A stretch of DNA of 64,000 nt from Escherichia coli (GCF_048403405.1 NZ_CP183129.1), one strand, 5' to 3'; numbered from the stretch's first letter, positions 49,699 to 54,593 are shown. Program-made: numbers and translations. Notes: generated by a model from the letters alone, not told the origin.

Positions 49699-51102
49699 AT
49701 GAATACAGTACGCAGCGAAAAAGATTCGATGGGGGCGATTGATGTCCCGGCAGATAAGCTGTGGGGCGCACAAACTCAACGCTCGCTGGAGCATTTCCGC
49801 ATTTCGACGGAGAAAATGCCCACCTCACTGATTCATGCGCTGGCGCTAACCAAGCGCGCAGCGGCAAAAGTTAATGAAGATTTAGGCTTGTTGTCTGAAG
49901 AGAAAGCGAGCGCCATTCGGCAGGCGGCGGATGAAGTACTGGCAGGACAGCATGACGACGAATTCCCATTGGCTATCTGGCAGACCGGCTCCGGCACGCA
50001 AAGTAACATGAACATGAACGAAGTGCTGGCTAACCGGGCCAGTGAATTACTCGGCGGCGTGCGTGGGATGGAGCGTAAAGTTCACCCTAACGACGACGTG
50101 AACAAAAGCCAAAGTTCTAACGATGTCTTTCCAACGGCGATGCACGTTGCGGCGCTGCTGGCGCTGCGCAAGCAACTCATTCCGCAGCTTAAAACCCTGA
50201 CACAGACGCTGAGTGAAAAATCCCGTGCATTTGCCGATATCGTAAAAATCGGTCGAACCCACTTGCAGGACGCCACGCCGCTAACACTGGGGCAGGAGAT
50301 TTCCGGCTGGGTAGCGATGCTCGAGCATAATCTCAAACATATTGAATACAGCCTGCCTCACGTAGCGGAACTGGCTATGGGCGGTACAGCTGTGGGTACT
50401 GGACTAAATACCCATCCGGAGTATGCGCGTCGCGTGGCAGATGAACTGGCAGTCATTACCTGCGCACCGTTTGTTACCGCGCCGAACAAATTTGAAGCGC
50501 TGGCGACCTGTGATGCCCTGGTTCAGGCGCACGGCGCGTTGAAAGGGTTGGCTGCGTCACTGATGAAAATTGCCAATGATGTCCGCTGGCTGGCCTCTGG
50601 CCCGCGCTGCGGAATTGGTGAAATCTCAATCCCGGAAAATGAGCCGGGCAGCTCAATCATGCCGGGGAAAGTGAACCCAACCCAGTGTGAGGCATTAACC
50701 ATGCTCTGCTGTCAGGTGATGGGGAACGACGTGGCAATCAACATGGGGGGCGCTTCCGGTAACTTTGAACTGAACGTCTTCCGTCCGATGGTGATCCACA
50801 ATTTCCTGCAATCGGTGCGCTTGCTGGCAGATGGCATGGAAAGTTTTAACAAACACTGCGCAGTGGGTATTGAACCGAATCGTGAGCGAATCAATCAATT
50901 ACTCAATGAATCGCTGATGCTGGTGACTGCGCTCAACACCCACATTGGTTATGACAAAGCCGCCGAGATCGCCAAAAAAGCGCATAAAGAAGGGCTGACC
51001 TTAAAAGCGGCGGCCCTTGCGCTGGGGTATCTTAGCGAAACCGAGTTTGACAGCTGGGTACGGCCAGAACAGATGGTCGGCAGTATGAAAGCAGGGCGTT
51101 AA
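49699..51102 (+). CDS. fumC: Class II fumarate hydratase
   Basis: 467-aa ORF; GSSxMPxKxN signature. Confidence 0.97.
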
Positions 51103-52028
51103 TCTGCAACATACAGGTGCAGCCGGGGAATGATCAAACGAAGCGGCTGCGCCTGTGGTTTATAACGGTGTTGCACATTGTCGGCATCGTAATTTAACAA
51201 CTCCCCAACGTCCGGCACGCCCGCGCCATTATCCCGATTAATCAGCGCAATAAGCGGTGTAGGGCAAGCGTGTTGTACTTGTTTTTGATCTCCCTTGTAC
51301 CAGACGCGGGCAATCGGCTGCACCTTCACCGGACGTTTGATTTTTAACTTCGCGTCCTGTGGCAGGGTAGCAATATCCTGATACTCTCTCTCCAGTTTTC
51401 TTTGCCACTCCTCGCGCGTCCACGGTGCGACACTGCGCGGTGATTTCAGGCTTTTTTCCAGCTGTGCCAGGACTTCATCACGATGCAAATTCTTAATGAT
51501 ATGTTTATTGGCCCAGCCAAAACGTAAAGTGGCGGGGTCGTGCAGAACAGTGAGCGTTCGGTAAGCATTAAGGGTGATCAGCCCCGGCAAATGACGATGC
51601 ACCCATTCAAAACGCGCCGCTGTGGGGAGTTCTGACTCAACCGTGACGATACGCTCGAACGTAGTCTTGAGTTGATTGATGCGCTGAATATGACTGACCA
51701 ACGCTGCTTGCGAAAGGTTATCGACCTGGTAACACAATACGCCAGGTAGACGAACAGCGGCCTTGCTGCTGCGATTTTCGGACTGTTGTTGAATAAATAA
51801 ATGGCGGAAATGACGTAACGCCAGCGACTGCGCGTCGTTGCCGAGATGTTGCTTTACCTCAATACGATTAAGCGGATTATGCTCATCCTCTTTTTTTACC
51901 TCCGGCAAAGAGAACACGCGGGCAACCAGCAATTTGTGCTGTTCTAGCTCAGCGGCAAATGCAGCCAGTTCTTGTTCCATCTGGCGAAAGGTAGTGTTGA
52001 GTCGGTCTACGAGATCGTAACGCGCCAT
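51099..52028 (-). CDS. tus: DNA replication terminus site-binding protein Tus
   Basis: 309-aa product from the ATG at 52026-52028; stop overlaps the fumC stop (TTAA). Confidence 0.95.
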
Positions 52029-52038
52029 AATATTAACC

Positions 52039-52062
52039 ACTTTAGTTACAACATACTTTATT
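52039..52062 (-). other. Ter replication-fork arrest site (TerB-like) 11 bp upstream of tus
   Basis: Minus strand reads AATAAAGTATGTTGTAACTAAAGT, containing the conserved Ter core GTATGTTGTAACTAAAGT. Confidence 0.8.
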
Positions 52063-52104
52063 TTATAGCACAGTATCGACAGCCTGACCACCGTGCGCAT
52101 AGTG

Positions 52105-53406
52105 TCAGGCAGAGGTAAATTGCGGGATGTTATGCCATAACGGCCAACTAAACGAGAAGCGGGCACCACCCAGTTCGCTGGTGTCACAATTAACCGTACC
52201 GCCCATTGCTAGTGCTATAGAGTGGACAATCGCCAACCCCAGCCCGCAGCCGCCGGTTGAGCGATCCCGGCTGGGATCGAGGCGAACAAAAGGTTCAAAG
52301 ATATGTTCGCGGTTTTCTGGGGCAATCCCTGGGCCATCATCCTCAACAATTAATGTCGCTCTATTCCCCGACAGTAGCAGGCTGGTTTCAACCGTTGAGT
52401 GACAGTAGCGCAGGGCGTTATTGAGCAAATTATCCAGCACGCGCTCCATTAAGCGCATATCCAACGCCGCATAATGGCCTTGCGCGAGCGTTTTAATCCG
52501 TACCGTTTTATCGGGCGTTACTGCCTGAATGTCTGCCAGATGCGTTGACAGCCACAACGGCAGGTCTGGTTCGCTAAGATGAAGCTCGTTTTGTGGGCGA
52601 TCGAGTCGGGCATAAGTCAGCAGCTCTTCAATTAAAGCTTCAAGTTGACTGATATCGCGATTCAACGCCTGGGATTCGGCGGCGCTCAGGTTATCGCTCA
52701 TCTCCAGTCGATAACGCAGGCGCACTAACGGTGTTCGCAGTTCATGAGCGATACCGTCAATAAGCTGTTTTTTGCTGGCAATCAAGGCGTTGATATTGTC
52801 CGCCATCTGGTTAAATGCGACGCCAAGTCGTTCAAAGCTCGAACCCTCATCAAAGTGGATACGCTCATTGAGATGCCCATCGCCAAATCGTTGCGCCGCT
52901 GCTTCCAGTTTTAACATATCCTGCCAGTGCGGACGCATCCAGATAAACACCGGAAAGGCGAGGGAAATGGCAATAAAAGCGATCAGGGCGATATCCAGTA
53001 ATCGCATCTGATGGAGGTAATAAAGATAAGGAACAGGACCAACTGCCAGCACGTAGTGGCTGCGCGGGATACGTTGCAAAAACGTGTACTGATCGTCCAG
53101 GGCGACAATTTCGCCGCCACGCAGCCGGTGCATGGAAATATCATCAAGATGATATTTACTCAGCGGCTCGACACGCAGATCGAAAGAGAGATTTAAATCC
53201 ATCTCCTTCAGCGTCTTACCCCAATCGTGTGGGGGGATCTCACGCAATTCGCTGCGCATCAGATACAGCGAACTGTTCATCAAATCATCCAGCGACTGTT
53301 TGCCCGCGCGTTCGGCGGTAAATTTGTACACCAGCCCAACCAGCAGAGACATCACAAGGAAGCAGACAAACAATAACAGGTAAAACTGGATAAACAGTTT
53401 TTTCAT
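52105..53406 (-). CDS. rstB: Two-component sensor histidine kinase
   Basis: 433-aa ORF; two TM, HAMP, H-box HELRTP. Confidence 0.93.
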
Positions 53407-53409
53407 CGC

Positions 53410-54129
53410 TTATTCCCATGCATGAGGCGCAAAAAGATAGCCTTTGTTACGCACAGTTTTAATGCGATAAGGTTCTGCGGCGTTATCGAGCAGTTTTTTT
53501 CTTAACCGCGAAATAGCCACGTCCACGCTACGATCCAGTCCGTCATAACTGACGCCACGTAAATTTTTCAGCAATGCATCGCGGTCCATGATTTGCCCAG
53601 CATGGGTAGCTAATTCCCACAATAATTCGAAATCAGCTGTCGAGAGCGAGATTTCAGTGTTAGCCAGGGTGACTACGCGGTTGATAGGATCGATGGTCAA
53701 CGTGCCGAAATGCAGGGCTTTGTAGGGAGTCAGAGACGTTTCCTGAAGACCTTTGCTCAGTGTGGCTTGCTCATTCTGACGCAAATGCAAACGTAAACGC
53801 GCTAACAAAACAGCAGGGGGCGTCGTTTTGAGAATATAGTCGCAGGCTCCCATTTCCAGTGCCAGGATGTGGTTCATATCGCTATCGAGAGAGGTTAGAA
53901 GAACAATTGGTCCGGACCACTTTGCGCGTAAATCACGACAAATGGTCATGCCGTCCTTGCCTGGTAGCATGATGTCGAGTAACACCAAATCCGGATTTTC
54001 TCGCAGAATAGTTTCTTCGGCCTGGTCGCCGCGCGGCTCTACGGTAACCTGCATATCATGTTTTGCCAGGTACGCGGCAATCAGTGAACCGACTTCCGCA
54101 TCATCTTCCACAAATACGATAGTGTTCAT
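53410..54129 (-). CDS. rstA: OmpR-family response regulator
   Basis: 239-aa product from the ATG at 54127-54129. Confidence 0.93.
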   Translation of the reverse strand: MNTIVFVEDDAEVGSLIAAYLAKHDMQVTVEPRGDQAEETILRENPDLVLLDIMLPGKDGMTICRDLRAKWSGPIVLLTSLDSDMNHILALEMGACDYILKTTPPAVLLARLRLHLRQNEQATLSKGLQETSLTPYKALHFGTLTIDPINRVVTLANTEISLSTADFELLWELATHAGQIMDRDALLKNLRGVSYDGLDRSVDVAISRLRKKLLDNAAEPYRIKTVRNKGYLFAPHAWE

Positions 54130-54257
54130 ATTATTCACGGTAGATATAAAAACGTCACAATACACCGCGCTGTTTTTACTTACTATCAATCGTTTCTAAA
54201 CAAGTTTTCATCAGGTATTCTACTGATGACTTGTTATGGAAGTGTTAAGGTAAAAAG

Positions 54258-54593
54258 ATGGGGCTGGTAATCAAAGCCGCGCTCGGTGCGCTGGTAGTGC
54301 TGTTGATTGGTGTTTTAGCAAAAACGAAAAATTATTATATCGCCGGGCTGATCCCACTTTTCCCGACCTTTGCGCTCATCGCGCATTATATTGTTGCCAG
54401 CGAACGCGGCATTGAAGCCTTACGCGCAACCATCATTTTTAGCATGTGGTCGATTATTCCCTATTTTGTTTACCTGGCGTCGCTGTGGTATTTCACCGGA
54501 ATGATGCGCTTGCCCGCCGCTTTTGTTGGTTCTGTTGCGTGTTGGGGGATAAGCGCATGGGTGTTGATTATATGCTGGATAAAGCTGCATTAA
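54258..54593 (+). CDS. ydgC: GlpM-family inner membrane protein
   Basis: 111-aa hydrophobic ORF. Confidence 0.85.
   Translation: MGLVIKAALGALVVLLIGVLAKTKNYYIAGLIPLFPTFALIAHYIVASERGIEALRATIIFSMWSIIPYFVYLASLWYFTGMMRLPAAFVGSVACWGISAWVLIICWIKLH

Follow-up and report, generated by a model that had tools for sequence, protein, structure and literature searches.

A conserved hairpin within the end of tus, probably a fumC 3'-end element, at one of three Escherichia coli convergent junctions that lack intergenic DNA

Introduction

Convergent genes whose coding sequences overlap by 4 bp form a described class in which the shared tetramer is CTAA, TTAA, CTAG or TTAG (Lillo & Krakauer 2007, PMC2174442; Huvet & Stumpf 2014, PMC4161906). 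By two published counts E. coli has 58 to 75 convergent overlaps (PMC2174442; PMC4161906), among about 704 convergent gene pairs. The same literature had already placed terminators, by necessity, in the coding sequence of the partner, and 20% of the genes in convergent overlaps have predicted rho-independent terminators within the partner gene (PMC2174442; PMC4161906).

Overlapping transcription of convergent genes has also been catalogued under the excludon concept (Sesto et al. 2013). Using ExcludonFinder, 165 convergent pairs with overlapping transcription were listed, folM-ydgC, tus-fumC and ydhK-sodC among them (NAR 2025, PMC12288877), and in Table 1 of that work the transcripts of these three pairs, as well as of tqsA-pntB from the same window, overlap in 50% or more of 58 transcriptomes. 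The Listeria-type excludons have long antisense transcripts and demonstrated regulation, whereas what is published for the pairs considered here is transcript overlap and not mutual exclusion.

Transcripts of convergent genes may further end at bidirectional terminators or by head-on collision of polymerases. As described in a preprint, hundreds of convergent pairs terminate independently of Rho and intrinsic signals with a stem-loop assisting (Ju et al. 2019, via bioRxiv 10.1101/2022.10.23.513370), and the efficiency of collision termination rises with the expression of both partners. Lastly, bicyclomycin data have revealed Rho-terminated read-through, with Rho scores of 5.6 antisense to tus (p = 5.8e-7), 3.6 antisense to folM and 5.1 antisense to ydhK (Adams et al. 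2021, PMC7815308). Here we compare the fumC/tus, ydgC/folM and sodC/ydhK junctions with these systems.

Results and Discussion

Geometry of the three junctions

The window is a stretch of 64,000 nucleotides of E. coli DNA (NZ_CP183129.1), and it contains 11 convergent junctions, whose gaps measure 145, 50, 0, 46, 43, 35, 44, -4, -4, 24 and 38 nt. An earlier note on this DNA had claimed that the fumC and tus stops overlap, that ydgC and folM overlap by 4 bp and that the sodC and ydhK stops abut. We found each of these in the sequence, in the open reading frames and in RefSeq. The features are as follows.

49699-51102, plus strand: fumC coding sequence (class II fumarase, 467 aa), TAA stop at 51100-51102
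51099-52028, minus strand: tus coding sequence (309 aa), TAA stop as the reverse complement of 51099-51101
51099-51102, both strands: TTAA common to the fumC and tus stops, a 4-bp convergent overlap
54258-54593, plus strand: ydgC coding sequence (GlpM family, 111 aa), TAA stop at 54591-54593
54590-55312, minus strand: folM coding sequence (dihydromonapterin reductase, 240 aa), TAA stop as the reverse complement of 54590-54592
54590-54593, both strands: TTAA common to the ydgC and folM stops
11812-12333, plus strand: sodC coding sequence, TAA stop at 12331-12333
12334-14346, minus strand: ydhK coding sequence (FUSC family), TAA stop as the reverse complement of 12334-12336

The ends of all three pairs in our list of open reading frames are those of RefSeq, for the 100%-identical closest strain and for K-12 MG1655. 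Homologues from 79 species (tus/fumC) and 42 species (folM/ydgC) align to the last residues, which indicates that both reading frames are real up to their stops, and Tus matches the 309-residue PDB chain 1ECR over residues 1-309. These alignments, the full crystal chain and the unambiguous stops make it extremely improbable that the overlaps are an annotation artefact in which one gene of each pair ends earlier, and we found nothing in favour of such an artefact.

The fumC/tus and ydgC/folM overlaps have the form [CT]TA[AG], with the central TA of YTAR in both stops. Their geometry is identical to that of the published 4-bp class, and both are annotated as overlapping in K-12, the genome from which the counts of 58-75 were made. 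In contrast, the sodC and ydhK stops adjoin in TAATTA at 12331-12336 with 0 intergenic bases, a zero-gap abutment outside the [CT]TA[AG] form, and in other genera tus and fumC overlap by 11 or 14 bp or have a gap of 0. The overlaps are real, and their number in the window is that expected by chance: in a binomial calculation with the genome-wide 58-75 of about 704, the probability of at least two overlaps among 11 junctions is about 0.23-0.33. The overlapping-stop arrangement, the read-in and the overlapping transcription of the three pairs are already published or catalogued. We think it likely that the three junctions are ordinary tail-to-tail arrangements of the known [CT]TA[AG] or zero-gap class, within an explanation that includes an embedded fumC hairpin and Rho.

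Persistence of the overlaps across Enterobacteriaceae

The folM/ydgC gap was -4 in 41 of 42 genomes (species), the tetramer being CTAG in 16, TTAA in 12, TTAG in 12 and CTAA in 1. Among 79 Enterobacteriaceae genomes the tus/fumC gap was -4 in 42, -11 or -14 in 15 and 0 in 18, and it was 0 or less in 75 of the 79. As judged from these comparisons, the persistence of both overlaps across the family is new here. Such overlaps may originate through drift in the stops of two facing genes, up to the point at which these stops coincide. A mutation in the central TA of YTAR, which is part of both stops, would then kill both simultaneously, and only the outer bases would be free to toggle between TAA and TAG. 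Because of this the arrangement would persist once formed, and we infer a model of 'locked' stops. The folM/ydgC junction provides a clean natural example of YTAR persistence while the stop codons toggle.

Read-in and Rho-dependent termination

Since there is no intergenic DNA at these junctions, every 3' UTR is antisense to the partner and the signals for 3' ends must sit in the partner's coding sequence. The proposal that transcripts read into the antisense strand of the partner gene is supported by the zero intergenic DNA, the published overlapping transcription and Rho regions 197-585 nt past the stops. The Rho regions, antisense to tus, folM and ydhK and downstream of fumC, ydgC and sodC as in the described Rho-terminated read-through (PMC7815308), are listed below; their window positions were mapped from K-12 coordinates and they are resolved only to hundreds of nucleotides.

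51350-51430 (approximate), plus strand: Rho region antisense to tus, K-12 position 1684895, about 290 nt past the fumC stop, low resolution
55140-55220 (approximate), plus strand: Rho region antisense to folM, K-12 position 1681110, about 585 nt past the ydgC stop
12490-12570 (approximate), plus strand: Rho region antisense to ydhK, K-12 position 1723937, about 197 nt past the sodC stop

We suggest that Rho would halt those polymerases that get past the fumC hairpin after about 290 nt of tus, and that it would end ydgC and sodC transcripts within folM and ydhK, at about 585 nt and about 197 nt respectively. With no intergenic DNA, the paired mRNAs would be complementary at their 3' ends. Antisense promoters within the partner genes could account for part of the Rho signals.

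The Term-seq tables place no 3' end closer than about 100-300 nt to any of the three junctions (PMC7815308), and SMRT-Cappable-seq has no entries for the junction genes. In particular, no Term-seq end precedes the overlaps (Adams et al.), where an end would have spoken against read-in. However, overlap is not the cause of read-in, because pntB, slyB and grxD, which are separated from their partners by gaps of 24-50 nt, also have Rho regions antisense to the partners (PMC7815308).

A conserved hairpin past the fumC stop

The earlier note had also held that none of these junctions has room for an intergenic terminator. This is correct for the DNA between the genes and leaves aside their coding sequences, and a conserved fumC hairpin is embedded in that of tus at 51114-51155.

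51114-51165, plus strand: hairpin in the fumC 3' UTR with a 12-bp stem (arms 51114-51125 and 51144-51155), an 18-nt loop and the tail GGUUUAUAA ending at 51165
51165-51173 with 51182-51190, plus strand: second helix, weaker and tentative, 89.6% paired

The hairpin begins 12 nt past the fumC stop, its extent with the tail being 12-66 nt past that stop, and lies within tus codons 290-306, among the last 20 codons of the gene. Its GC-rich stem of 12-13 bp (-26.5 kcal/mol, fold z = -4.9) is as stable as expected of an intrinsic terminator. However, the 18-nt loop in E. coli is longer than the typical 3-8 nt, although in several genera extra inner pairs shorten it, and the U-rich tail GGUUUAUAA is short, with a mean of only 3.4 U in 8 nt over 80 genomes. 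The hairpin thus departs from a textbook terminator. A consensus terminator scan of 49600-55500 (at least 5 U, loop of at most 8 nt) did not call it because its loop exceeds 8 nt, and Rfam covariance models gave no meaningful match on either strand of 48000-57000. The second helix had only 1 pair with a double change and no synonymous constraint.

We found the hairpin in 80 of 80 genomes, which are phylogenetically non-independent, and it was retained over the whole range of tus/fumC spacing, from -14 to +35. Compensatory changes were present at five of its pairs, a value reached by none of 500 shuffles. At one covarying pair Tus residue 295 is P, S, A or T (CCG, TCG, GCG or ACG) and tracks the third base of Arg302 (CGG, CGA, CGC or CGT). 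Synonymous entropy was 0.56 bits in the eight stem codons compared with 1.27 +/- 0.11 bits in amino-acid-matched tus codons (P<1e-5). RNAalifold on the hairpin alignment recovered the inner 7 bp.

The comparison of strands favours the fumC sense. Pairing of the hairpin was 96.8% in the fumC sense and 85.9% in the tus sense, and folding energies averaged -25.5 kcal/mol for the fumC sense and -19.8 kcal/mol for the tus sense, the former being the more stable in 73 of 80 genomes. The G.U asymmetry between strands had been considered as proof of the strand and was downgraded. Seven of the eight third-position stem sites are G in tus, so much of the asymmetry arises from these third positions and it is not an independent proof. 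As seen in the alignments, the conserved hairpin inside the end of tus, its compensatory changes, the suppressed synonymous variation and the greater stability in the fumC sense are new here.

Other terminator candidates

Among six 3' regions that were folded only that of fumC was significant (z = +0.3 for tus, -1.4 for folM, -0.7 for ydhK, -1.7 for sodC and -2.2 for ydgC). The sole site flagged by the scan of 49600-55500 was a weak one at 54659-54673, part of the following feature.

54659-54685, plus strand: small stem-loop AUCGACCAGGUCGAU then CACUUCUUUCUC in folM, weakly terminator-like (z = -2.2), not convincingly conserved

As a ydgC terminator within folM this stem-loop was rejected, its stem being short, often broken in other genera and without clear synonymous constraint. 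A candidate tus terminator within fumC (AAGGGC..GCCCUU then CUUUAU, about 50985-51013) was likewise rejected, its 5' arm not being conserved outside Escherichia. By folding of the 3' regions we found no convincing embedded terminator for ydgC or sodC, and no conserved terminator within the partners was found for tus, folM or ydhK.

What the fumC hairpin may do

Our data suggest that the hairpin probably serves fumC as a terminator or 3'-end cap embedded in tus. In RNA of the fumC sense it would most likely bring about partial intrinsic termination, protect the message from 3' exonucleases, or do both. Like embedded intrinsic terminators and 3' stabilising stem-loops it is GC-rich, with 12 bp and about -26 kcal/mol, begins 12 nt after the fumC stop and leads into GGUUUAUAA. 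It differs from embedded intrinsic terminators in its 18-nt loop (in E. coli) and short U-tract, and in also encoding Tus residues 290-306. No Term-seq 3' end falls at the hairpin (K-12 16851xx; Adams et al. 2021, PMC7815308), which is weak counter-evidence because fumC is poorly expressed in those media.

The conservation could instead come from protein or codon constraint on the Tus C-terminus, or from a role of the hairpin in tus mRNA or in DNA, so that it would be no fumC element. The motif KPQAQP..IPRLHLY encoded there is highly conserved in Tus, and the stem codons are the preferred ones (CTG, CAG, CCG, GCG), both as this explanation would have it. However, identical amino acids elsewhere in tus vary synonymously 2-4 times more, the coupled changes give four different Watson-Crick pairs at one position, and an invariant mid-stem U.G would become a mismatched C.A if read in the tus sense. 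On that strand the stem comes before the tus stop codon, and because it ends 11 nt ahead of this codon it would be translated through. In K. indica fumC lies at a distance of 3.9 kb and the hairpin is still kept, which speaks for a role other than in fumC, although tus in that genome is followed after 65 nt by the end of a different convergent gene. On this evidence we regard an explanation by Tus or tus alone as unlikely.

The excludon literature raises the further question of whether the spacing of these pairs is selected, with mutual repression through polymerase collision or RNase III cleavage of duplexes, for instance stress-induced fumC and sodC lowering tus and ydhK. All three pairs belong to the published excludome (PMC12288877), excludon pairs as a class have higher synteny and less single-cell co-expression, and both overlaps are conserved across the family. 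These functional statistics are at the level of the class and not of the pair, however, and overlapping coding sequences become 'excludons' automatically when both genes are expressed. The mutational lock of YTAR would explain the conservation equally well, and neighbouring pairs with gaps of 24-50 nt have the same read-in. Moreover, a conserved fumC hairpin would limit overlap and not promote it, and the hairpin is retained while the tus/fumC spacing ranges from -14 to +35. Selection as excludons therefore seems to us improbable. We likewise see only a small chance that head-on collisions, and not the hairpin or Rho, mainly set the 3' ends. The tus/fumC junction resembles the reported bidirectional terminators, as the preprint describes them (Ju et al. 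2019; bioRxiv 10.1101/2022.10.23.513370), in that two convergent genes meet close to a stem-loop, and it differs in that the hairpin is wholly on the fumC 3' side and Rho dependence is seen at the junctions. A bidirectional terminator has an A-tract upstream and a U-tract downstream, whereas UCUGCAACAU precedes the stem here and there is no A-tract. Lying on the fumC side and lacking an A-tract, the hairpin would not serve tus. Bicyclomycin-sensitive read-through at all three junctions also argues against collision. In addition, the efficiency of collision termination increases with expression of the two partners, whereas tus, folM and ydhK are weakly expressed.

Returning to the hairpin as a fumC element, a more specific and rather doubtful proposal is that 51114-51155 is a dual-coding hairpin, specifying Tus residues 290-306 and a selected RNA, which has been kept through the whole history of the Enterobacteriaceae as an insulator with Rho as backup about 290 nt further on. 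By ending or capping fumAC transcripts at the extreme end of tus, it would protect that gene from antisense polymerases, which would otherwise run on to TerB-Tus and to the promoter of tus, 0.9 kb downstream. Work from the Bastia laboratory reportedly leads one to expect that transcription arriving from the fumC side displaces Tus.

The overlapping stops themselves matter little, being a textbook feature of compact bacterial genomes in pairs already annotated and listed as transcriptionally overlapping. The end of tus, on the other hand, appears to show clearly how protein-coding DNA can double as a conserved RNA structure that belongs to the opposite-strand gene. Synonymous positions in this part of tus would not be neutral, which bears on recoding or refactoring of the terminus region and on dN/dS of tus.

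A minor observation concerns the neighbourhood of sodC and ydhK, where the IS110 insertion of some strains sits between ydhL and ydhF, away from the sodC/ydhK junction.

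Gene ends at the three convergent junctions

The window lies in the replication terminus region of the E. coli chromosome, and the stretch 49600-55400 is at least 80% present in 5414 of 5426 complete E. coli genomes. Strain MS 69-1 is 100% identical to the window over the tested stretches. Its coordinate offset differs by 1 between two compared stretches, so at least one single-base indel relative to MS 69-1 lies somewhere in 14500-49600. Three convergent pairs end as follows:

51099-51102: TTAA of the fumC(+)/tus(-) junction, fumC stop at 51100-51102 (+), tus stop at 51099-51101 (-)
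54590-54593: TTAA of the ydgC(+)/folM(-) junction, both stops inside
12331-12336: TAATTA of the sodC(+)/ydhK(-) junction, sodC stop then ydhK stop, 0 bases between

We found the same gene ends in the ORF table, in the RefSeq annotation of the identical strain and in RefSeq K-12 MG1655, and the last residues are included in alignments of homologues from other genera. The sequence and these sources bear out the coordinates and stop arrangement that the earlier note had described at all three pairs. Start-codon ambiguity does not extend to stop positions. The mechanical ORF list gives a 362-aa tus (51099-52187, -, GTG at 52187), an extension that would cross TerB and enter the end of rstB. This is an artefact of ORF calling, because the annotated 309-aa start at 52028 fits the crystal structure; Tus is an end-to-end match to the 309-residue chain 1ECR.

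The 11 convergent junctions of the window are spaced by 145, 50, 0, 46, 43, 35, 44, -4, -4, 24 and 38 nt (negative values are overlaps). In E. coli K-12, 58 (Lillo & Krakauer 2007, PMC2174442) or 75 (Huvet & Stumpf 2014, PMC4161906) convergent overlaps have been counted, and convergent pairs total about 704. By our own arithmetic, the probability of at least two overlaps among 11 junctions is about 0.23-0.33 at 8-11% per junction. The number of overlaps in the window does not exceed chance and their frequency is as expected. Lillo & Krakauer (PMC2174442) reported a spike at length 4 composed of CTAA, TTAA, CTAG and TTAG, and noted that terminators of such genes must sit within the partner coding sequence; for 20% of these genes they found predicted terminators there. 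Junctions of this kind are common and form a class already described.

A single scan for Tus in species-representative genomes yielded 80 Enterobacteriaceae loci in which fumC, rstAB, ydgC and folM are also present.

Gaps between convergent stops across species (nt)
tus/fumC, overlapping (79 genomes): -4 in 42 (TTAA 33, TTAG 9); -11 in 14; -14 in 1
tus/fumC, non-overlapping (79 genomes): 0 in 18; +10 in 2; +35 in 1
folM/ydgC (42 genomes): -4 in 41 (CTAG 16, TTAA 12, TTAG 12, CTAA 1); -7 in 1

In one further genome, Klebsiella indica (comparison locus L074, 6999-10445), a two-gene cassette encoding an MFS transporter and a glucarate-dehydratase-like enzyme lies between tus and fumC, and the transporter gene converges on tus with a gap of 65 nt. 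The central TA of the YTAR tetramer is common to both stops, so that any change there would remove both, and transitions at the outer bases would merely swap TAA and TAG. Given this sharing and toggling, YTAR could persist without selection for the overlap itself. Judged from the sequences, such a lock would fit the pattern of junction spacing.

Transcription into the partner gene

All three pairs, together with tqsA-pntB, also from the window, are listed by ExcludonFinder (NAR 2025, PMC12288877) in a set of 165 MG1655 convergent pairs for which 50% or more of 58 RNA-seq sets show overlap of the transcription units. Using the K-12 annotation, we placed the bicyclomycin-sensitive Rho termination regions of Adams et al. 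2021 (eLife, PMC7815308, supplementary file 2) relative to the stops.

Rho regions antisense to convergent partners (PMC7815308; K-12 positions, with junctions in window coordinates)
1684895 (-): antisense to tus, score 5.6, about 290 nt past the fumC stop
1681110 (-): antisense to folM, score 3.6, about 585 nt past the ydgC stop
1723937 (-): antisense to ydhK, score 5.1, about 197 nt past the sodC stop
1674584: antisense to tqsA, pntB/tqsA junction, about 61380-61400
1720658: antisense to slyA, slyA/slyB junction, about 16077-16123
1733486: antisense to lhr, grxD/lhr junction, about 2712-2762

The curated Term-seq tables of the same study hold no 3' ends within about 100-300 nt of the three junctions, and hence none before the overlap, the observation that the earlier note had named as evidence against its reading. 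That note held that transcripts must read into the antisense strand of the partner for want of an intergenic terminator. The reading-in itself is supported and already in the literature. Overlapping stops are no special cause of it: tqsA, slyA and lhr, the convergent partners of pntB, slyB and grxD, have gaps of 24-50 nt and also carry antisense Rho regions, and therefore read-in is normal for convergent pairs here. Putative antisense interference within these pairs is possible.

A conserved hairpin at the end of tus

The chief remaining interest is a 12-bp hairpin in the fumC 3' UTR, a conserved dual-use stretch at the tus end:

51114-51125 (+): 5' arm CAGGTGCAGCCG, starting 12 nt past the fumC stop
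51144-51155 (+): 3' arm CGGCTGCGCCTG, after an 18-nt loop and followed by GGTTTATAA

Several results speak for a selected RNA structure. Folding of the RNA is far more stable than that of shuffles (z = -4.9, 0 of 200 shuffles as good), and the other five 3' regions at the three junctions gave no comparable excess. The hairpin is present in 80 of 80 genomes, which are related, so that these counts are not independent events. In their alignment five stem pairs have pairing-preserving changes on both sides; none of 500 shuffles reached the observed values, and slid controls dropped to 23-55% pairing. All four Watson-Crick combinations occur at one stem pair: the codon of Tus residue 295 varies between Pro (CCG), Ser (TCG), Ala (GCG) and Thr (ACG), and the third base of Arg302 changes in step with it (CGG, CGA, CGC and CGT, respectively). 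RNAalifold recovered the inner 7 pairs unguided, and K. indica tus keeps the inner part with a compensatory A-U pair. Rfam gave no family match. Synonymous codon entropy averages 0.56 bits in the eight stem codons versus 1.27 +/- 0.11 where tus encodes those amino acids outside the stem (P < 1e-5 by resampling); nucleotide-level selection therefore acts on top of protein constraint.

The functional strand is likelier the fumC-sense RNA. Read in the fumC sense, stem pairing reaches 96.8% and mean folding energy -25.5 kcal/mol; in the tus sense the values are 85.9% and -19.8 kcal/mol. The fumC sense is the more stable of the two in 73 of the 80 genomes; the G.U asymmetry is partly built in because G occupies the third codon positions of tus in the stem. 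A mid-stem U.G is invariant, its tus-sense equivalent being a C.A mismatch, and the tus-sense stem would be part of the translated region, ending 11 nt ahead of the stop. Against terminator criteria the loop is long (18 nt) and the U-tract weak (3.4 U in 8). From its sequence, the hairpin probably serves as an embedded terminator, shields against 3' exonucleases or does both, alongside the Rho region further in. It would restrict transcript overlap, not exploit it. A role as an insulator, shielding tus and the TerB-Tus complex from read-through out of fumAC, seems to us unlikely.

In the five remaining 3' regions, we rejected a putative terminator for tus inside fumC, which occurs in Escherichia alone. 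We also rejected a small stem-loop with a pyrimidine tail downstream of ydgC (54659-54685), whose stem is short and, in other genera, frequently disrupted; folM has no clear local synonymous constraint there. For sodC and ydhK, folding of the 3' region was no more stable than that of shuffled sequences. These five transcripts most likely rely on Rho or other mechanisms such as polymerase collision, and Rho dependence fits the published regions (PMC7815308).

Downstream of the hairpin a second helix, ACGGTGTTG / CGGCATCGT (51165-51190, +), encodes Tus residues 280-289. Its pairing across the 80 genomes is about 90%, with almost no compensatory change and without synonymous constraint.

TerB and other observations

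52037-52060 (-): TerB replication terminator site (AGTATGTTGTAACTAAAGT), immediately upstream of tus

TerB sits in the 76-bp rstB-tus spacer, 8-10 bp before the tus start codon, and is known as the site at which Tus autoregulates (Roecklein & Kuempel, as cited in PMC8707476). A weaker second core match, GTTGTAATGA at 30115-30124 (-), at the rsxB/rsxA boundary, is probably due to chance. The ydhL-ydhF spacer (about 10790-10830) carries a 1.4-kb insertion in some otherwise identical E. coli strains (e.g. strain 4621, OX030728). Absent from the window, it encodes an IS110-family RNA-guided transposase (467-1486 of L086, a comparison locus from another genome).
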